Shown here: piece after piece, positions 4,752-28,858 of the stretch
Layout: each line of letters begins with the position of its first letter
Numbering within the stretch: position 1 is the stretch's first letter
NCBI GenBank assembly: GCA_029941135.1
Contig: JAPYRI010000001.1
Span: 6,275-70,274, forward strand
Length of the DNA stretch: 64,000 bases
Direction: 5' to 3'
From: Alphaproteobacteria bacterium
GTDB taxonomy: Bacteria; Pseudomonadota; Alphaproteobacteria; JAPYRI01
Notes under the pieces: generated by a model
Database searches by the model: none
Told to the model about the DNA's origin: nothing
What the model saw: only the letters and a program-made list of their open reading frames with translations
Made by a program: the position numbers and the translations under genes

Positions 4752-7514
4752 ATGACCCCGTCGCAGATCACAATGCCGGATGCCCCGGTTCTGGTAGCTG
4801 GGCACAAACGCGCGATCTTGATCAGTCTTGATGGTGAGGTACAAGAGCTCGACGCCGGCGCCGCAGCCAAAATTGTTGCCGGCAAGCAAATCATTGTCTG
4901 CCATGGTGCGGTTACCGTCAGGCGGCTGGGCGTGACTTCGGCAAAGGCTCCAGAAACACTGATTGACGTCCTGCAGTTGTTCGCGTTCGTACGCCCAGCG
5001 GCCTTTTGTCTGCCCACGCCAGGAGGAGTTTCTTTGGCCCTTGGGCTCAACATCGGCCCATCTCTTGAAGACCAAGCGATGGGAATTTTGGCAACCGCGC
5101 GCGCCTTGCTTGCCGAACTTACTCAACCCCAATATCCCGACCGCGAAGCAACGGCCCGCCTTGCCATGACCATGGCACAAGCAGGCTGGCCCTGGGGTAC
5201 GTCGGTTTTGGCCGCTTTGGGGGTACCTCAAAAATCGACCGGTGCCTTAGGCGGACTCGACGTATGGCTTCGACTACCAGAATGGGAGGAACGCCCGCCT
5301 GAGCCGGCAGTCGCGGAACACCCCGTCAATCCTGATGAAACCCGCCTGAGACTGCAAGCCCTGCTCGACCCCACCGCTGAGTTGCGCCCGCAACAATCGA
5401 ACTACGCCGCCGGAATAGCGTCTGGTTTCTCGCCGCGCGACGATACGGACGCTCCCAATATTGTTCTCGCCGAAGCCGGGACCGGCATTGGCAAAACTCT
5501 TGGATACATTGCCCCGGCCAGCCTATGGACCGAGCGTAATCAGGGGGCGATTTGGTTTTCTACTTACACCAAAAACCTACAACGGCAAATTGATCAAGAA
5601 TTGAGCCGTTTGTATCCGGATCCAACCGAAAAAGCCCGTAAAGCTGTTATTCGTAAGGGCCGGGAGAATTATTTGTGCCTGCTCAATTTTGAGGAAGCAG
5701 TGGCCCGCAATCGCGCTAGCGGCAACACGATTACTTTGGCCCTTTTAGCACGCTGGGCCGGTTACAGCCGGGATGGTGACATGGTCGGAGGTGACTACCC
5801 TGCATGGCTCGAGAACTTGGGTGAGGGCACGCGATTGGGCGGGCTTACTGACCGGCGTGGAGAATGCATCTATTTCGCCTGCGCTCACTATCGAAAATGC
5901 TTCATTGAGCGCGCCGTACGCCGGGCGCGAAAGGCCGACATTGTGGTCGCCAACCATGCCTTAGTCATGACCCAGGCGGTTGCTCGCGCGCGCGATTTAG
6001 AAGAAGGCACTGAGCGCGCTGATCTCCCTACGCATTATGTGTTTGATGAAGGCCACCACGTGTTCGATGCCGCCGACAGCGCTTTTTCAGCTTGTTTAAG
6101 TGGTCAGGAGACGGCCGAACTGCGGCGCTGGATCCGAGGTCCGGAAGGCCGCCGTGCCCGCCGGGGCCGAGGTCTGGAAAAGCGGGTTGGTGATCTGGTC
6201 GCGGGCGATGGCGAAGCGGAATACGCCCTAAATCAGGCCACGCTGGCCGCTGCCAAGCTACCTGGTGAGGGATGGCTTGCCCGTGTCGCAGGAGAGGGAT
6301 CACCCACTGGACCAGCGGAGAAATTTTTGCATGCGGTCCACAATCTGGTACGCGCTCGAAATCCGGATGACGGTTCATTCTATGGCCTCGAGGCTGCCAA
6401 CACCGAACCGCCCGAGGATTTAATCGATGCCGCTGCTTTGTTAGGTGACACATTACTCTCACTCGCAAAACCGCTTGGGGACCTCGCAAAAGCGCTCCAC
6501 GAAAAGTTAAACGATGACGCTGCTCAATTGGATGCCGCAACTCGGGGACGGATTGATGCCGTAGCTCGCAGTTTGCGGAAAAGGATTGAGTTCGGCCTGA
6601 CACCTTGGCGGGACATGCTGTCCGATCTCGGCGCTACTACTCCGGACGCTTTTGTTGACTGGTTTTCGGTACAACGTCGTGCGGGACGGGACACTGACAT
6701 CGGATTTCACCGTCACTGGATTGACCCTACACAGCCCTTCACCACGGCTGTATTGGATCAATGCCACGGGGCGGTAATAACTTCCGCTACATTGCGCGAC
6801 CGGAGCCCCGATGCGGACGACGATTGGGCCAGCGCCGAAGTGCGCACCGGCGCCTTGCATTTGGTAAAACCCCCGGTTCGATTGGCCATCCCATCTCCGT
6901 TTGACTATGCAGCGCAAACCCGGGTTCTGGTCGTGACCGACGTGCGCGGTGGCAGTTCAGATCAGTTGGCTGCCGCCTATCGCGAATTATTTAAGGCTGC
7001 AGGCGGCGGAGCGTTAGGCTTGTTCACCTCTATTGCCCGGCTACGGGCGGTCCACGAACGCATTGCGTCGCCGTTGGATGAAATGGGCTTGCCGCTTTAC
7101 GCACAGCACGTTGATGCCATGGATACCGGCACCTTGGTGGACATATTCCGCGCCGAAACGGATGCCTGTTTGTTGGGAACAGATGCGGTTCGCGACGGTG
7201 TTGACGTCCCGGGAAGGTCGCTGCGGCTTATCGTTTACGACCGTGTGCCCTGGCCGCGTCCGGATTTGCTGCATCGAGCACGGAAAAAAGCGTTTGGCAG
7301 CCGCGCCTACGACGACATGATAACTCGTTTACGCCTTAAGCAAGCTTTTGGACGATTGTTGCGGCGCGCCACCGACCGGGGAATGTTTGTCATGCTGGAT
7401 TCGCGCATGCCGTCACGGCTGGCCACAGCCTTTCCCGAAGGGCTGACGATTGAACGCGTGGGATTAGCGGAAGCAATTGCCGAAACGGCGACATTCTCGG
7501 CGGTTGGCTCATAA
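4752..7514 (+). CDS. ATP-dependent DNA helicase, DinG/XPD (Rad3) family, with a roughly 230-aa N-terminal extension of unknown function.
   Basis: 920 aa. Walker A ([13 protein letters not shown]), a DEAH-like box ([10 protein letters not shown]) and a four-Cys Fe-S module (CLLNF…[13 protein letters not shown]) sit between helicase motifs I and II. The C-terminal helicase domain is conserved (VITSATL…, GLFTS…). Confidence 0.75.
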
Positions 7515-9698: not shown

Positions 9699-10684
9699 TC
9701 CGCTGTCTGTCGAATATTTTGCTCATCGTTGGCTGGATTTCAACCTCTGCATTGGCTTATGCGGAGACAACGGATCTCCCCGATGTTCGCGTGGGTGTGC
9801 TCAGATTTGGCACCGTAAACTGGGAAACAGATGTCATCGCCCACCACAAATTGGACCAAGCCAACGGCTTCTCCCTCACCGTCCTCCCTTATGCGTCGAA
9901 TCAGGCCAGTCATGTTGCTCTGCAAGCCGGGGAAGCCCAAGTGATTGTCGCCGATTGGTTGCTGGCCGCACGCATGCAAGCAAGTGGCGCCGACATGACA
10001 TTTGTGCCTTATTCAACCGCCATCGGCTCGATGATGGTGCCCGGCGATACGGCAATCAAGAGTCTTGCCGATCTGAAAGGCAAGCGTGTGGGGATTGCCG
10101 GCGGTCCGCTCGACAAAAGCTGGTTGCTGTTGCGCGCGGAGACGCAGGCAAAGTTAGGATTTGATTTGGCCGATGAAGTTGAAGCAGTGTTTGGAGCACC
10201 GCCCCTGTTGAATGAGGAGCTGAAAGCAGGGCGATTGGACGCGCTGCTGACCTATTGGCACTATGCAGCAAAACTCCAAGTCGCCGGGATGCGCCGAATG
10301 GTGTCGGTCGCAGACGTGGCCCGTCAAATGGGCGGCGGGGCCGTGATGCCTTCCCTGGGGTTTGTGTTTTCCAACGCCTGGGCCAAAGCCAACCCAAAGG
10401 CAATTGCCGGTTTGATCTCGGCTTCGCGGGCAGCCAAACAAATTATGGCCCAGTCGGATACTGAGTGGGACCGACTGCAACCGCTGTTGAAGTCCGACGA
10501 TGCCGCAACCCGCGATGCCCTGCGGGATAGCTTCCGAACCGGCATTCCAAAAAGCTGGGGGCCAGCGGAAAGGCGCGGCGCCGCCAAAGTGTTTATGATC
10601 ATGCGCCAAATGGGCGGGGACACATTCACCGGACGGGTCCTCTCTCTGCCAGACGAAACGTTTTGGCTTAACGCCGATTTCTGA
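9695..10684 (+). CDS. ABC transporter substrate-binding protein, NMT1/THI5-like (nitrate/sulfonate/bicarbonate SsuA/TauA family).
   Basis: 329 aa with a signal peptide (MIRCLSNILLIVGWISTSALAYA). The start ATG overlaps the purU stop (ATGA at 9695-9698). It is followed by a cognate permease and ATPase. Confidence 0.7.
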   Translation: MIRCLSNILLIVGWISTSALAYAETTDLPDVRVGVLRFGTVNWETDVIAHHKLDQANGFSLTVLPYASNQASHVALQAGEAQVIVADWLLAARMQASGADMTFVPYSTAIGSMMVPGDTAIKSLADLKGKRVGIAGGPLDKSWLLLRAETQAKLGFDLADEVEAVFGAPPLLNEELKAGRLDALLTYWHYAAKLQVAGMRRMVSVADVARQMGGGAVMPSLGFVFSNAWAKANPKAIAGLISASRAAKQIMAQSDTEWDRLQPLLKSDDAATRDALRDSFRTGIPKSWGPAERRGAAKVFMIMRQMGGDTFTGRVLSLPDETFWLNADF

Positions 10685-17796: not shown

Positions 17797-19449
<1,653 letters not shown>

Positions 19450-21990: not shown

Positions 21991-22548
21991 TCATGCTTTG
22001 GCGTTTAAAGCCTGAACGATCTGCAGGCCGCCGGGGGCATCAACATCCACCCCGCTCACTTCCATGAATCGCGCCATCATCATGTAAAAGCCAATGGCTG
22101 CCGTGATTTCCATCACCTCGCGGTCGGATAAATGTTCCCGCAACGCGGCCAACACCTGATCGCTGGGCCGGACGTTCTGCACCACCTCGTCGGCGAACGC
22201 GAGCACGAGTGCCTCCAGTTCCGTGAAGCAATCACCCGTGCGCTCGCCCTTTTGCAAGGCGTCGATCTGCGCTTGGGTGACCCCAACATCGTTGGCAAAC
22301 GCCTCGTGCTGAACCCATTCGTATTCAGCGTCCGACAATTGGGCGACCCGCAATATGACCAGCTCACGCAACACCGGCGACAGTTTCTGAACGGTCAAAA
22401 TTTTGGCGCCCAGTTGCAACATGGCCGGACAGGCTTCATCCAGATGGCTGACCATGCGCAGAATGTTCAACGATACCGGCATGGAGTGGAGCGTGTGCCG
22501 CGTGGCATCCGAAAGCGTTTCCACATCGGGATAAGGCAGTCGAGACAT
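21991..22548 (-). CDS. Carboxymuconolactone decarboxylase (CMD/AhpD-like) family protein.
   Basis: A 185-aa product from the internal ATG at 22546-22548 (MSRLPYPDVETLSDATRH…). The ORF-track product (312 aa) has a 127-aa non-conserved N-extension. The AhpD-like helical core is present. Confidence 0.65.
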   Translation of the reverse strand: MSRLPYPDVETLSDATRHTLHSMPVSLNILRMVSHLDEACPAMLQLGAKILTVQKLSPVLRELVILRVAQLSDAEYEWVQHEAFANDVGVTQAQIDALQKGERTGDCFTELEALVLAFADEVVQNVRPSDQVLAALREHLSDREVMEITAAIGFYMMMARFMEVSGVDVDAPGGLQIVQALNAKA

Positions 22549-22737
22549 TGTAATTTCCCCCAGAATAATATTTACGGCGCTGACCCTAACACGTTGGCCG
22601 ACGCAGGTGTATTCGCGGCTGCCCGTGCAACGCCGGGGACCAGCCCGTGCAACGCCGTTGGAATGTCTTGCAGTGCCCCCGGGAATGGGGACAATGCGCC
22701 CAACATTTAGGAAATTGAAAACGAAGGAGATCCCTCC

Positions 22738-23157
22738 ATGACGACTGTCAATGTAAGCGAAACCGTGGCCGCCTCCGCCGACGACGTGTGGCGGATCATC
22801 AGCGACTTTGGCGGTGTTGAGCCCAATGAAATGATCGCCGGCTGCACGGTCGACGGCGAGGGGGTTGGCGCTGTGCGCACCATTACCTTGAACGGCGGCG
22901 GCGAAATCATTGAAAGCCTGGAGAGCCATGACAACAGTGCCCAGGTATTCAGTTACGCAATCATCAACGACTGCCCGTTGCCGGTGAAAAACTACCTGTC
23001 CACGGTGAAAGTTTCGGACGACGGCAACGGCGGGGCGACCGTCGATTGGTCGAGCACGTTCGAGGCCGCAGGCGCGCCGGAAGACACTGTCGTTGATCTC
23101 ATCAAAGGAGTCTACAAGGGCGGCATCGCGCGGGTGCGCAGCAAGCTCGGCCTCTGA
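22738..23157 (+). CDS. SRPBCC-superfamily (Bet v1/polyketide cyclase-like) protein.
   Basis: 139 aa. Shows the Polyketide_cyc2-like pattern (VSETVAASADDVWRIISDFGG…), and the RBS GGAGA sits 8 nt upstream of the start. Confidence 0.6.
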   Translation: MTTVNVSETVAASADDVWRIISDFGGVEPNEMIAGCTVDGEGVGAVRTITLNGGGEIIESLESHDNSAQVFSYAIINDCPLPVKNYLSTVKVSDDGNGGATVDWSSTFEAAGAPEDTVVDLIKGVYKGGIARVRSKLGL

Positions 23158-23182
23158 TACTCTTTAAATAGTCAGCCCAGGT

Positions 23183-23830
23183 ATGGCGGGGACCGATCTC
23201 ACACAGGACGCCTTCAAGCGCATGGACGAGGGCGAGGACCGGTTGTTTTACGAGGTTCCCCGCTTGGTGACCCACATCGACGAGGGCGCCATTGCGGCAC
23301 TTACCTCTTGTTTTAAAGACCACCTTCCGGCAAGCGGCGACATCTTGGATCTGATGTCCAGTTGCGTGTCCCACTATCCGGACGATGTTGAGTTTGCCTC
23401 GGTGACCGGCCTCGGGATGAACCGGGTCGAGCTGGACGCGAACCCGCGCCTCACCACACGGGTCATTCACGACCTCAACCACGACCCCATCTTGCCTTTC
23501 GATGACGGGACGTTCGATGCTTGCACTCTCAGTGTGTCGGTCCAATATCTGACCCGGCCAAGCGCGGTCTTTACCGAGTTGGCGCGGGTGTTGAAGCCCG
23601 GGGCCCCCTGCATCATCAGTTATTCAAACCGCTGCTTTCCGACCAAGGCGGTGGCCGTTTGGCAGGCGCTCGATGACCACGGACATGGCGAGCTCATCGC
23701 CCAATATTTTGCCGGCAGTAAGGAGTTCGCGCCTGCGCGGGTCCTCGACCTGTCGCCTGCACGCGGGCGCACGCGCGTACACAGAGACCCGCTCTACGTC
23801 GTCGTCGCCGACGCCGCCTTGCCGCTCTGA
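23183..23830 (+). CDS. Class-I methyltransferase-fold protein with a non-canonical motif I (paralog 1).
   Basis: 215 aa. Methyltransf_11-like core (…DILDLMSSCVSHYP…VTGLGMNRVELDANP…DLNHDPILPFDDGTFDACTLSVSVQYLTRP…ARVLKPGAPCIISYSN). The Gly-rich SAM loop is replaced by LMSSCVSH. Confidence 0.55.
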   Translation: MAGTDLTQDAFKRMDEGEDRLFYEVPRLVTHIDEGAIAALTSCFKDHLPASGDILDLMSSCVSHYPDDVEFASVTGLGMNRVELDANPRLTTRVIHDLNHDPILPFDDGTFDACTLSVSVQYLTRPSAVFTELARVLKPGAPCIISYSNRCFPTKAVAVWQALDDHGHGELIAQYFAGSKEFAPARVLDLSPARGRTRVHRDPLYVVVADAALPL

Positions 23831-24023
23831 GCACGGTACATTACCTTCAGCCCGCACAACCTCAAGCGGGGCGACGGTGACTGAACACAGCAACAAGTTG
23901 CGGAAGTTGGGATTTGGGTTGCTGGGGGCAGTGGCGGTTGGCGGTTGGCGGGCTCGTGGTCTCACTGCTGACTGGGGCCTACTACGCCTTCATGGTCTAT
24001 GGCGATCACAGCGACAGAAAAAT

Positions 24024-24797
24024 ATGGCGAAATTTGAACTGATTCCGAATTACTTTGAGCACGCGAACACCTACGCAGACACTAAATATTACCGGACGCC
24101 CTGCATGGCGCCGTTTATGGACAAGCGGGCGCGTGGGGCCTTGACGACCTTCTTATCCGGCGAACTGCCGCGGGGTGGAGATATGCTGGATTTGATGTCC
24201 GGACGCTACTCCCACTACCCTCGCAACCTGGCGCCGCAATCGGTCACGGGCCTCAATATGAACTTAGTTGAGCTGGAGGCAAACCCGTGGCTCACGGCTC
24301 GGATCGTTCATGACCTTTACCGCGAACCGAGACTGCCCTTTGCGGACGCAAGTTTCGATGGGTGCTCGGTGAACCTGGCGGTCGAATATTTGACTCAACC
24401 AGTCGCGGTGCTGGCCGAGGTGGCACGGGTATTGAAGTCCGGCGCCCCGTTCATCATCAGTTATTCAAACCGTTATTTTATGGCGAAAGCAATTGCGCTG
24501 TGGCGCCTCCTGGACGACCTTGGCCGCGGCGAGCTGGTGCGCCACTTTCTCAATATGAACGGCGGGTTCGAGTTCGAGGGTGCCCAGGTTGTCGACCTAT
24601 CGCCCGCCGCAGGGCTCGCCCAGCCGCTGTTCGCCGTCACTGCCCGCAAGCAACCTCGCTTGCCGCTTGACCGGACATGGGGGTTTTCACGCGCCCCAAG
24701 TGCGGAAATTTATGCGCCTATGGGATCAGTGCCGTTATGTAGCCGGGCAAGTCAAACGCCGCCCGATGGACATGCGGTGTGTAGTAGCGGGTGGTGA
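24024..24797 (+). CDS. Class-I methyltransferase-fold protein with a non-canonical motif I (paralog 2 of 23183..23830).
   Basis: Starts at the ATG at 24024 (MAKFELIP…). It aligns with paralog 1 along the whole core (DMLDLMSGRYSHYP…VTGLNMNLVELEANP…DLYREPRLPFADASFDGCSVNLAVEYLTQP…ARVLKSGAPFIISYSN). A roughly 45-aa C-terminal extension overlaps the 3′ end of convergent speE. The ORF-track N-extension (23673-24023) is spurious. Confidence 0.5.
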   Translation: MAKFELIPNYFEHANTYADTKYYRTPCMAPFMDKRARGALTTFLSGELPRGGDMLDLMSGRYSHYPRNLAPQSVTGLNMNLVELEANPWLTARIVHDLYREPRLPFADASFDGCSVNLAVEYLTQPVAVLAEVARVLKSGAPFIISYSNRYFMAKAIALWRLLDDLGRGELVRHFLNMNGGFEFEGAQVVDLSPAAGLAQPLFAVTARKQPRLPLDRTWGFSRAPSAEIYAPMGSVPLCSRASQTPPDGHAVCSSGW

Positions 24798-25560
24798 TCT
24801 CTAGCGCCGCAAACCGCGCGGCCAAAACATCGGTGCCGAGCCGGTGCAAGTCTGGATTGTCGGTCGAAAAGCCGAGGGTCATGGGCCCGCCTACGTAGGT
24901 GGGCACCGGCACCGTATAGAAGCCCACGTCGCTGAACTCTTGCCTGAGACGCCGCCCCGCGCGGGTGAGTTCATCGGCTTGGAAAAACGGCACGCCATTT
25001 TGCGTGACCAGCACACCACCCGGGCTGAGGCAGCGTTTGCAATCCCCATAGAACGCTTGCGTAAACAACGCCTCGCCCGGGCCCATGGGGTCGGTCGAAT
25101 CGACAATGATCACGTCGAATTTTTGTTCGGTGTCGGCCATAAACCGACCCCCGTTCCCGATGTGCACCTGGGTGCGCGGATCGTCGAATGCGCCTTGGCT
25201 TAACCCCGGCAGGTGCTCGGTGCACAGGTCAATGACCGTGCGGTCGAGCTCGACCAAGGTCGCGTGCTCGACGGGGTGACGCAAAACCTCGCGTAACGAG
25301 CCGCCATCGCCACCGCCGATAATGAGCACATTTTGCGCGGCCCCATGGGCCACAAGCGGCACGTGCACCAGCATTTCATGGTAGAAAAATTCGTCCCGCT
25401 CGGTGGTTTGAACGATGCCGTCCAAGGCGAGCACCCGGCCAAAGATCGGGTTGTCGAACAGGATCAGGTGCTGATGCTCGGTTTTGTCTTCGAACACCAC
25501 GTGGCCGATCTCCAAGTGCTGGCAGTACCCCGGGTGCAGGGTCTCACTGAACCAAGTCAA
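24718..25560 (-). CDS. speE: Spermidine synthase (polyamine aminopropyltransferase).
   Basis: 280 aa. GGGDGG motif (VLIIGGGDGGSLREV) and DSTDP motif (IIVDSTDPMGPGEALF). Confidence 0.9.
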   Translation of the reverse strand: MTWFSETLHPGYCQHLEIGHVVFEDKTEHQHLILFDNPIFGRVLALDGIVQTTERDEFFYHEMLVHVPLVAHGAAQNVLIIGGGDGGSLREVLRHPVEHATLVELDRTVIDLCTEHLPGLSQGAFDDPRTQVHIGNGGRFMADTEQKFDVIIVDSTDPMGPGEALFTQAFYGDCKRCLSPGGVLVTQNGVPFFQADELTRAGRRLRQEFSDVGFYTVPVPTYVGGPMTLGFSTDNPDLHRLGTDVLAARFAALEITTRYYTPHVHRAAFDLPGYITALIP

Positions 25561-26009
25561 CGAACGATGCCCCGCTTGTGTTCGCTCACCTCGAGCTGTG
25601 TGGGAGCAAAAACGCGGCGCAGAACGGGCAGGCAGTGATGGGGGTTACACCCACCGCACATGAAGATATCAAGCGCCGCGAATTTGCGTTCGGGCCAGGT
25701 GTGGATGGTGATATGTGATTCGGCCAATACGGCAACGCCGGTCACGCCGGTTGACGCGTCAAACTGATGCACGTGAACTTGCAGCACCGTTGCCCCCGCT
25801 GCCTCGGCGGCCTCACACAGCGCCGATTTCACAGCTTCCGGGTCGGTGAGGTTGCGGCCCCCCCACAACTCCACCAACAGGTGCGTGCCGGCAAAGCAAA
25901 CCCCCTCGTGCTCAACAAAATAGTCGTCACTTACAGAGGTGGTCGACGTGCCGCCATCATTTACTAAATTCTGGTTTTTGTCAGTCAAAGCATCTTCCTC
26001 GCGGGTCAT
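25557..26009 (-). CDS. speH: S-adenosylmethionine decarboxylase proenzyme (class 1b, pyruvoyl-dependent).
   Basis: About 150 aa (…GVCFAGTHLLVELWGG…ESHITIHTWPE…). The self-cleavage Ser lies in …VLAESHITIHTWPE…. The stop overlaps the speE start (ATGA-type coupling), giving a speH-speE operon. Confidence 0.8.
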   Translation of the reverse strand: MTREEDALTDKNQNLVNDGGTSTTSVSDDYFVEHEGVCFAGTHLLVELWGGRNLTDPEAVKSALCEAAEAAGATVLQVHVHQFDASTGVTGVAVLAESHITIHTWPERKFAALDIFMCGGCNPHHCLPVLRRVFAPTQLEVSEHKRGIVR

Positions 26010-26030
26010 CGGTTACGCGCCTGTCGCCGC

Positions 26031-26708
26031 TCACAGTTGCGGTGCGAGAGAGAACCGCTGAGCAACTTCTATCCAGTTTCCATCCGGGTCGCGTATAAAG
26101 CCAATGCGCGCGATGTCACCGATGGTAAAGGGGGCTTCGCCCACTTCCGCGCCGCGTTCCACCAAACCTGCGAACGCCGCATCCACATCCGTCACATGAA
26201 GGGTCACATAAGTCACCCCCTCGGCGATCCAATGACCGGCTTGGCCAGCGCCACTATTTTGCTCAACAAAAAATAGGGCCGCGCCCGAACGATACCGCCC
26301 TTCACCCAGATCCTCAAACTGCAGCACGCGGGTCATAAAATCCCGGTGCGCCCCCAGATCCCTAACCCCCAACCGCACACCCAGACCGGTGAGCCCTTCC
26401 CAACCCATTGGAACCAAAGTGACCGCGTTGCCGTCGGGGTCCGCGCGATTGTCTGCCTTTCCAACCGCCTTCCGTGGGCAAAACAATTCCTGGTAGCCCG
26501 TGGTAGCCCGATTGAGCGTTCCATTCGCATGCCGGGTATTGATTTTGAGGATCGATTCGCCCGCCGCGTAACGGTATTGGCACAAGATGTCCTCAATCTC
26601 CGCCTTGGCAGCAAACGGAAAGCCAATTTCGTCCTGCCAAAAGGCTTGTTGAGGTTTCAATTTGCCCGTGAACAAGCCGACATCTATCTGAGGTTTGGAA
26701 AGAAGCAT
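26031..26708 (-). CDS. VOC-family protein (glyoxalase/bleomycin-resistance/dioxygenase fold, two tandem modules).
   Basis: 225 aa. Two beta-alpha-beta-beta-beta-like halves, typical VOC composition. Confidence 0.55.
   Translation of the reverse strand: MLLSKPQIDVGLFTGKLKPQQAFWQDEIGFPFAAKAEIEDILCQYRYAAGESILKINTRHANGTLNRATTGYQELFCPRKAVGKADNRADPDGNAVTLVPMGWEGLTGLGVRLGVRDLGAHRDFMTRVLQFEDLGEGRYRSGAALFFVEQNSGAGQAGHWIAEGVTYVTLHVTDVDAAFAGLVERGAEVGEAPFTIGDIARIGFIRDPDGNWIEVAQRFSLAPQL

Positions 26709-26829: not shown

Positions 26830-28858
<2,029 letters not shown>

Follow-up and report, generated by a model that had tools for sequence, protein, structure and literature searches.

The two adjacent methyltransferase-fold genes in this 64,000-nucleotide stretch of DNA (the window), here termed MT1 and MT2, are explained with moderate confidence as the orthologue of a class I methyltransferase-fold family (MT1) and a diverging tandem paralogue (MT2), set among neighbors whose order is inherited. 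The tandem pair itself represents an ordinary lineage-specific duplication in a marine alphaproteobacterium, and local gene order alone accounts for its apparent link to the polyamine genes. More useful is the broad family behind MT1, which carries a generic methyltransferase label and combines a strictly conserved non-glycine loop with a predicted loss of helix A.

Locus organization

The first gene of the locus (22738..23157, + strand) encodes a 139-residue SRPBCC (Bet v1-like, Polyketide_cyc2) protein, which matches Pfam PF10604 (4.1e-23) at 82.7 bits against a cut-off of 27.4 over residues 1-137 of 139; a GAAGGAG ribosome-binding site lies 7 nt upstream. MT1 (23183..23830, + strand, 215 aa) follows after 25 nt and encodes a class I methyltransferase-fold protein with a DLMSSxVSHxP loop where GxGxG is expected. 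It is separated from MT2 by a 193-nt spacer (23831..24023), in which no resemblance was detected either to relatives or to other parts of the window. MT2 (24024..24797, + strand, 257 aa) sits within a longer open reading frame (23673..24797, + strand), and homology begins at the ATG at 24024. A 7-bp TGGCGGT indel in the spacer (23932-23938) is polymorphic between same-species contigs; because it shifts the upstream extension of the MT2 frame out of register in most of them, ATG 24024 is the strain-consistent start. No obvious Shine-Dalgarno sequence for MT2 was found. The MT2 product consists of a 215-codon core (24024..24668), the fast-evolving paralogue found in this species only, and a 42-residue C-terminal tail (24669..24797) that is covered by no homologue in the alignment.

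Two polyamine genes lie on the opposite strand. The first, speE (24718..25560, - strand), encodes a 280-residue spermidine synthase (polyamine aminopropyltransferase), is convergent with MT2 and overlaps it by 80 nt at its 3' end (24718..24797). The second, speH (25557..26009, - strand), encodes a 150-residue S-adenosylmethionine decarboxylase proenzyme, and 4 nt at its stop are shared with the start of speE. SpeE exceeds the NCBIfam equivalog cut-offs of NF002010 (358.2 bits against 260) and TIGR00417 (319 against 249.55) and matches Pfam Spermine_synth (1e-60), while SpeH exceeds that of TIGR03330 (123.8 bits against 75.65) and matches Pfam AdoMet_dc (2.8e-34). The flanking genes are thus as the preliminary description had named them, with the SRPBCC gene upstream and speE-speH beyond MT2. 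An Rfam search of 22300-26200 for riboswitches found nothing.

Paralogy of MT1 and MT2

The reading of MT1 and MT2 as tandem paralogues, proposed from the sequence at the outset, is confirmed. Their products share 48% identity over 211 aa (BLASTP, E 9e-67), far beyond chance, and the genes, adjacent and co-oriented, are 73% identical over nt 217-449 of both in the same register (blastn). A single MT gene occupies the equivalent position in all four syntenic relatives (L081, L089, L091 and the P0004 contig). No MT2 orthologue was found outside this species among 5.8 billion proteins, and all matches above 51% identity are same-species. In the phylogenetic tree, MT2 groups with the clade formed by MT1 and its closest orthologues (65.5% bootstrap), with a terminal branch of 0.56 compared with 0.13 for MT1, and it shares with this clade a rare Y65 that occurs in 0.5% of distant members. 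MT2 most likely originated as an extra copy when the MT gene that relatives carry between the SRPBCC gene and speE was duplicated in tandem.

A recent duplication specific to MT1 found no support, as the clade-wide Y65 is the only rare residue (present in less than 10% of distant members) that the two proteins have in common. Because, in addition, MT2 is never the direct sister of MT1 in the bootstrap trees, an older duplication followed by losses, or transfer from a relative, may lie behind MT2. The synonymous divergence (dS) is 1.14 for MT1-MT2 and 1.64 for MT1-L081, both values exceeding 1 and being near saturation.

A large family with a conserved non-glycine loop

The family of MT1 comprises more than 7,988 protein clusters and at least 598 genomic stretches (species) from many phyla. 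Eighty loci were kept from it, including those of Chloroflexota, Deinococcus, Rubrobacter, Cytophagales, Alphaproteobacteria, Acidobacteriota, Armatimonadota and other groups. Members are about 210 aa long and bear generic database names only ("class I SAM-dependent methyltransferase"). HMM alignment to MitM places ILDLMSSCVSH (MT1) and MLDLMSGRYSH (MT2) at the position of GxGxG. The loop D-L-M-S-S-[WC]-[VI]-S-H-x-P is almost invariant across 222 aligned relatives, in which D56, S60, S63 and H64 are each found in 222/222 and M58 in 220/222. All three GxGxG glycines are replaced in the family by M, S and V, with M58 and V62 occupying two of these positions; DLMSSCV of MT1 contains no glycine and DLMSGRY of MT2 contains one, so that neither protein has the canonical glycine-rich motif I. 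The preliminary description was therefore right that motif I is non-canonical in both proteins, with LDLMS..SH in place of GxGxG, but the term "degenerate" does not suit a replacement loop that few other segments of this very large family equal in conservation. Its near-invariance in the 222 relatives marks it as a derived, selected feature rather than a product of decay.

The view that these proteins are uncharacterised likewise stands. In addition to their generic names, a scan against NCBIfam models (UbiE/MenG, BioC, MetW, DVU_1556, MduS and others) reached at best 27.1 bits against a cut-off of 327 for MT1 and 24.5 against 380 for MT2, partial and sub-threshold matches that assign neither protein to a family. 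Single-sequence and profile searches of the PDB returned distant generic methyltransferases only, with identity to solved structures of at most 19%, and no paper on the DLMSSxVSHxP family emerged from literature searches for its motif or for comparable atypical methyltransferases. Fused variants of about 400 aa also occur, whose N-terminal domain has homologues in the fused form only; an FKBP/SlyD-like identity for this domain, guessed from "DLNHPLA", was unsupported by Pfam or PDB.

Fold and cofactor site

The Methyltransf_11 (PF08241) profile comparison proposed in the preliminary description places both proteins above the gathering score of 21.2 bits (37.3 for MT1 and 34.9 for MT2). The matches extend over profile positions 48-94 (MT1) and 18-95 (MT2) of 95; they start after motif I, which thus falls outside the matched region. 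Both proteins have the seven-strand Rossmann-like methyltransferase fold, and the top fold matches include the cyclases SpnF and SpnL. In place of helix alphaA, residues 58-72 are predicted as coil or loop, at a pLDDT of about 90.

Kozbial and Mushegian 2005 (PMC1282579) describe what GxGxG, motifs II-IV and the acidic residue of strand 1 do. The strand-1 residue reaches SAM through water, whereas an acidic residue at the end of strand 2, "partially conserved" among methyltransferases, binds the ribose hydroxyls; some active methyltransferases have replacements of motif I glycines (PMC1282579). The strand-1 acidic residue is D56 in MT1, MT2 and all 222 members. Where strand 2 ends, MT1 has G78 (GLGMN) and MT2 has N78 (GLNMN); the closest PDB relatives, RebM and MitM, reading GISxS, also lack an acid there. 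It might be that the invariant E83 stands in for the strand-2 acidic residue. The family keeps E83 after strand 2, D/N after strand 3, an LP motif and D112 at strand 4. Many invariant polar residues lie off the standard methyltransferase motifs, namely H31, D33, H64, S63, N80, E83, N87, R150 and K155.

Rapid change and remaining constraint in MT2

MT2 keeps 38 of 52 family-conserved columns, while each of the other 222 members keeps at least 46. The 14 losses are R13H, D15N, F22Y, R27C, V29A, H31F, I32M, S60G, G78N, V118L, S119A, P153M, T154A and D202Q; among these positions, D15, F22, R27, H31, S60 and G78 are invariant in the 222 others and D202 is kept in 99%. The losses cluster in the N-terminal cap (p 0.005). 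Conserved columns are nevertheless retained preferentially, at four times the frequency of the remaining columns (p 3e-5). The dN/dS ratio is about 0.35 for MT1-MT2, compared with 0.12-0.14 for orthologue pairs, and in a drift simulation with indels not counted, 1.3% of unconstrained copies were still open at the divergence of MT2. The core has a GC content at codon positions 1/2/3 of 0.62/0.43/0.71, typical of coding sequence here; it is predicted to fold with a pLDDT of at least 90 and with the same secondary structure as MT1. The tail, in contrast, is unlike coding sequence (0.56/0.72/0.49) and predicted to be disordered, with a pLDDT below 50 at residues 227-244 and 252-257. Read-through into sequence antisense to the 3' end of speE is its probable origin. 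Eight MT2-carrying contigs were read, and in all six same-species contigs that were fetched the core is open and the 257-aa product identical; contigs L083-L088 match the window at more than 99.6% identity, which leaves too little variation for pN/pS. MT2 is fast-evolving yet constrained.

Genomic neighborhood

The preliminary description had also suggested that the SRPBCC, MT and polyamine genes form a small module. The adjacency of MT and speE is confined to a clade of close syntenic relatives (66-73% identity), which share a wider block, TetR-ChaC-CMD-...-speE-speH-groEL, and the adjacency is therefore simply synteny; moreover, MT and speE are convergent and so not co-transcribed. SRPBCC orthologues in L081 and L089 are 77-78% identical, while the other two syntenic relatives, L091 and the P0004 contig, lack an SRPBCC gene call upstream of MT. 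The trio SRPBCC-MT-MT was seen in this species only, its relatives having a single MT gene. In relatives at 61-65% identity MT has unrelated neighbors, for example HIT/Band_7 or histidine kinase/HSP20, and no SRPBCC, speE or speH was detected by tblastn within 6 kb of MT at any of the 80 more distant loci. Neither a Pfam census of immediate neighbors, which peaked at 5/75 and 4/74 loci with unrelated families, nor ORF clustering of the 80 neighborhoods revealed a recurrent partner, and Polyketide_cyc2, Spermine_synth and AdoMet_dc are absent from the recurrent families of the census. DinB_2, NUDIX and ABM neighbors are in slight excess (4-5/75 loci), too weak for use. The module thus finds no support, and the placement beside the SRPBCC gene and speE-speH is the inherited local gene order of one clade.

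Proposed explanation and alternatives

In the preferred reading, MT1 would be the resident orthologue, in which the glycine-rich loop has been swapped for D-L-M-S-S-[WC]-[VI]-S-H-x-P and helix alphaA is predicted to be a loop. Tandem duplication between the SRPBCC gene and speE would have given rise to MT2 in this Sneathiellales species only, after which MT2 would have changed about four times faster than MT1, chiefly in the N-terminal cap, and acquired its putatively disordered read-through tail. In such enzymes the N-terminal cap lies over the active site. Because MT2 has kept an intact and folded product, the gene is most likely not dead but encodes either an enzyme with an altered substrate or a non-catalytic partner. 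The retention of D56, E83, the LP motif, D112 and the D/N that follows strand 3 suggests that binding of an adenosyl cofactor has probably been kept in the family, with SAM the likeliest candidate. The family probably methylates a small, possibly anionic compound, which the conserved R27, H31, R135, R150 and K155 would hold. A ligand-bound structure or an activity for one member would test both the generic annotation and the extent to which the SAM loop has been rebuilt in this fold, and MT1 and MT2 offer a natural comparison between a conserved copy and one with a remodelled cap.

The most probable alternative, though on balance an unlikely one, is that the whole DLMSSxVSH family carries out no SAM-dependent methyl transfer and instead uses another ligand or cofactor, performs SpnF-type cyclase chemistry or acts as a scaffold in the manner of Dre2/anamorsin. 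The invariant replacement of the three glycines by M, S and V across 222 members, the confidently predicted coil in place of helix alphaA (pLDDT about 90), the exclusion of motif I from the Methyltransf_11 matches, the presence of two cyclases, SpnF and SpnL, near the top of the fold matches and the many invariant polar residues outside the standard motifs are all consistent with it, as are precedents of non-methylating proteins with the same fold (PMC1282579, PMC3440578). However, the SAM-contacting D56 is invariant, the motif III/IV positions and the Methyltransf_11-typical LP motif are kept, and some active methyltransferases have substituted motif I glycines (PMC1282579). It is also quite improbable that the family is an unconventional enzyme with a rebuilt cofactor site (for another adenosyl cofactor or non-methylating chemistry), MT1 and MT2 forming a catalytic/non-catalytic heteromer like Trm61-Trm6.

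The remaining alternatives concern MT2 and its neighbors. A reading of MT2 as a pseudogene in decay, a tandem copy without function, would fit its loss of 14 of 52 family-conserved residues, several invariant elsewhere, the loss of the ancestral stop position with gain of a 42-aa non-coding-like tail, the lack of an evident Shine-Dalgarno sequence and of orthologues, and an MT1-MT2 dN/dS above that of orthologue pairs. Yet this is quite improbable in view of the open core and the identical product in 6/6 fetched contigs, the 1.3% of simulated unconstrained copies that stay open, a dN/dS (0.35) below 1, the fourfold preference for conserved columns (p 3e-5), the coding-like codon-position GC of the core and its confidently predicted fold (pLDDT at least 90). 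A functional module of SRPBCC-MT1-MT2 with speE-speH, for small-molecule tailoring or a polyamine-related task, is very improbable. The SRPBCC and MT genes are co-oriented with gaps of 14-26 nt here and in L081 and L089, MT adjoins a convergent speE in four related lineages, of which L089 adds an ornithine decarboxylase gene, and SpeE has a methyltransferase fold too. Against these stand the shared block that accounts for the adjacency as synteny, the convergence of MT and speE, which precludes co-transcription, the missing SRPBCC gene 5' of MT in L091 and the P0004 contig, the unrelated contexts of the relatives at 61-65% identity, the 0/80 distant loci with any of these genes within 6 kb and the absence of Polyketide_cyc2, Spermine_synth and AdoMet_dc from the recurrent neighbor families.

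Comparison with known systems

TcmN-type systems pair an SRPBCC polyketide cyclase with an O-methyltransferase. The locus resembles them in having a Polyketide_cyc2/SRPBCC gene directly upstream of a methyltransferase-fold gene; however, its surroundings contain neither a polyketide synthase nor any other biosynthetic gene, and the pairing is limited to a few close relatives and absent family-wide.

MT1 and MT2 are like the Methyltransf_11-type class I enzymes RebM (3BUS), MitM (8ZC8), SpnL (7V6H) and the Trm112-associated Hvo_0019 (6F5Z) in passing the PF08241 threshold and in keeping the strand-1 aspartate and the "LPF..sFD" and "ArvLkpGG" segments, and the GLGMN of MT1 parallels the GISxS of RebM and MitM at the end of strand 2. 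They differ from such enzymes in the invariant M-S-S-[WC]-V followed by S-H-x-P in place of GxGxG, in the predicted loop at helix alphaA, and in a family-specific N-terminal cap ("F.R.DE..D..FY..PRLV.HID") and C-terminal "SNRxFPTKAxxxW" motif. They are no more than 19% identical to any solved structure, and no family member has a known substrate.

Methyltransferase-fold proteins without methyl transfer include sc-mtTFB, Gcd10/Trm6 as the non-catalytic paralogous member of Trm6-Trm61 and the N-terminal domain of Dre2/anamorsin (PMC1282579, PMC3440578). As in these proteins, the fold is retained and the glycine-rich loop altered, and the predicted loss of helix alphaA resembles non-SAM-binding domains such as Dre2/anamorsin (PMC3440578). 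A divergent MT2 next to a conserved MT1 also bears a formal likeness to a catalytic/non-catalytic paralogue pair. However, MT1 and MT2 have an intact strand 1 with its acidic residue, whereas in Dre2 this strand is missing altogether, together with helices Z and A (PMC3440578). Unlike in the non-methylating proteins, moreover, the altered loop of this family is under strong purifying selection, which, being family-wide, suggests a role in the active site rather than a loss of function.

Tandem duplication and locus organization

The two methyltransferase-fold genes of the window, MT1 (23183..23830, + strand, 215 aa) and MT2 (24024..24797, + strand, 257 aa), represent a tandem duplication specific to this lineage; they belong to a large uncharacterised family whose fold is a variant of that of class I methyltransferases. 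Their products share 48% identity over 211 aa (E 9e-67), and nt 217-449 align at 73% DNA identity with the register unchanged. MT1 follows an SRPBCC gene (22738..23157, +; Pfam Polyketide_cyc2 match, 4e-23) and is separated by a 193-nt spacer from MT2, which converges on and overlaps by 80 nt the speE gene (24718..25560, −; NCBIfam, 358 bits vs a cut-off of 260); speH (25557..26009, −; NCBIfam, 124 bits vs 75.65) comes next. The paralogous pair, its flanks and the overlap are thus confirmed as the preliminary description gave them; of its interpretation, the tandem duplication stands, while a 'degenerate' cofactor motif and a functional module do not. The source organism is a Sneathiellales MAG (HIF10153.1 is identical to MT1), and at least six further contigs of the same species, each >99.6% identical to the window, have the same arrangement. 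An Rfam search of 22300-26200 revealed no riboswitch and no other element.

Upstream, the divergent intergenic region between a CMD-family gene and the SRPBCC gene carries a 15-nt perfect direct repeat, two copies of GCCCGTGCAACGCCG with 22-nt spacing (22621-22657), a candidate binding site for a regulator. The 312-aa ORF at 21991-22929 (−) is over-extended: its CMD family match is confined to the C-terminal ~185 aa (Met near 22548), which also match 185-aa genes called in three conspecific contigs (L083-L085), and its N-terminal part runs antisense across the SRPBCC gene start. Two CMD paralogues lie in tandem at the corresponding position in the syntenic relative L081. Two groEL genes flank the region, at 17800-19449 (+) and 26830-28858 (−), in a block kept in relatives; the downstream gene encodes the usual GGM-repeat tail and the upstream one a proline-rich tail.

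Within the MT1-MT2 spacer, a GGCGGTT-like run contains a 7-bp TGGCGGT copy-number polymorphism (23932-23938), the extra copy being present in the window, L086 and L087 and absent from L083, L084, L085 and L088, all contigs of this species. In most contigs the indel puts the long upstream part of the MT2 ORF out of frame, which makes the ATG at 24024 the consistent start and accounts for the gene callers' 257 vs 306 aa for MT2.

Origin and constraint of MT2

Close relatives share a block of groESL, hydrolase, TetR, ChaC, CMD, (SRPBCC), MT, convergent speE, speH and groEL, with a single MT gene lying between CMD or SRPBCC and speE; its product is 73% identical to MT1 in L081, 66% in L089, 67% in L091 and 66% in the P0004 contig. 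Outside the species itself, MT2 found no match above 51% identity among 5.8 billion proteins, the next best being orthologues of MT1. Neighbour-joining placed MT2 as sister to a group made up of MT1 and the orthologues nearest to it (65.5% bootstrap), never as sole sister of MT1, with a terminal branch of 0.56 vs 0.13 for MT1. MT2 also has Y65, a rare residue of the MT1 clade present in 0.5% of distant members; of the residues that are rare (<10%) among distant relatives in the family, it is the only one the two paralogues have in common. The single syntenic gene, the search, the tree and Y65 together point to a duplication inside this clade, which is well supported as to its place but not as to its date.

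Across 52 family-conserved columns (each ≥90% conserved), MT1 keeps all 52, each of 222 other members at least 46 and MT2 38. The losses (R13H, D15N, F22Y, R27C, V29A, H31F, I32M, S60G, G78N, V118L, S119A, P153M, T154A, D202Q) cluster in the N-terminal cap, the part covering the active site in such enzymes (7/11 conserved columns vs 7/41 elsewhere, p 0.005). That MT2 is simply a pseudogene is nevertheless quite improbable. Conserved columns are kept preferentially (38/52 vs 159 others, of which 63 are kept; p 3e-5), GC per codon position in the core is typical of coding sequence, and dN/dS between the paralogues is 0.35 vs 0.12-0.14 for orthologue pairs, an estimate that is approximate because dS exceeds 1. 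Furthermore, the 215-codon core is uninterrupted in all the contigs read, a state retained by only 1.3% of unconstrained copies simulated to the same divergence, and its predicted fold is that of MT1. The last 42 residues have no homologue, a composition unlike coding sequence and predicted disorder; they resemble a read-through product of the speE antisense strand, gained once the ancestral stop was lost. MT2 is accordingly read as a paralogue whose constraint has relaxed but persists, and which would have either a changed specificity or a non-catalytic role.

Genomic neighbourhood

The proposed SRPBCC-MT-speE/speH module finds no counterpart in the wider family. In 80 loci from other species, comprising Dehalococcoidia and other Chloroflexota, Deinococcus, Rubrobacter, Hymenobacter, Fibrella, Rhodospirillales, Acetobacteraceae, Gemmatimonadales, Acidobacteriota, Armatimonadota and other groups, tblastn detected SRPBCC, SpeE or SpeH within 6 kb of the MT gene in none (0/80), and when adjacent ORFs were clustered, no real family emerged in more than 12 loci. 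Among the genes directly next to MT on either side, the highest Pfam family counts were 5/75 (DinB_2) and 4/74 (MFS_1), with Polyketide_cyc2, Spermine_synth and AdoMet_dc not among the recurrent families. Relatives with 61-65% identity already have the gene in unrelated contexts, and SRPBCC is missing from 2/4 lineages of the syntenic clade. MT and speE are convergent and therefore not co-transcribed; the adjacency to SRPBCC, speE and speH is inherited synteny.

Polyamine cluster content differs between relatives: in L089 a gene for a PLP-dependent ornithine/DAP/arginine decarboxylase (5640-6767, −) is inserted in the MT-speE interval, and L081 retains only a 108-aa remnant (9989-10315, −) of a glyoxalase-fold gene whose window counterpart follows speH (26031-26708). 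Stress/detoxification-type neighbours recur weakly in the flanks of the 80 loci (DinB_2 in 5, NUDIX in 4-5, ABM in 4, and spore photoproduct lyase, OsmC and GST in 2 each), too sparsely for functional inference, though they may be of use as a lead.

Family and cofactor loop

MT1 homologues form >7,900 clusters at 90% identity, and at least 598 stretches matched in a scan for the pattern that took one genome per species. The segment aligned to the (D/E)xGxGxG of MitM, a methyltransferase of known structure (8ZC8), reads D-L-M-S-S-[WC]-[VI]-S-H-[LFY]-P in the family. Rather than having decayed, this motif I loop ranks with the best-conserved segments of the protein: D56, S60, S63 and H64 occur in 222/222 aligned members and M58 in 220/222. 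Pfam Methyltransf_11 passes its gathering score with a match that starts downstream of motif I, and an NCBIfam scan placed no family model near its cut-off for either MT1 or MT2.

Members of ~400 aa from outside the window (P0156, P0170, P0221, P0228, P0229 and P0231) have an extra ~190-aa N-terminal domain with 'NxWRDxLP', 'GRxYP' and 'DLNHPLA' motifs and no match in Pfam or the PDB. This domain was found only fused to the present methyltransferase-like domain, mostly in Gammaproteobacteria MAGs.

The chances that a family member is a SAM-using enzyme appear roughly even or slightly better. The invariant strand-1 aspartate D56 is kept, as are E83, the D/N after strand 3, the LP motif and D112 at strand 4, and these positions, whose functional roles were described by Kozbial and Mushegian (PMC1282579), argue for continued adenosyl cofactor binding. 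Bulky M and V at the glycine positions and the predicted absence of helix A argue against such binding and are reminiscent of methyltransferase-like domains lacking SAM binding, Dre2 among them (PMC3440578). A non-methyltransferase role of the family is rated rather unlikely, and use of SAM is the reading preferred here. The sole point of wider interest is the rebuilt loop at the predicted cofactor site.
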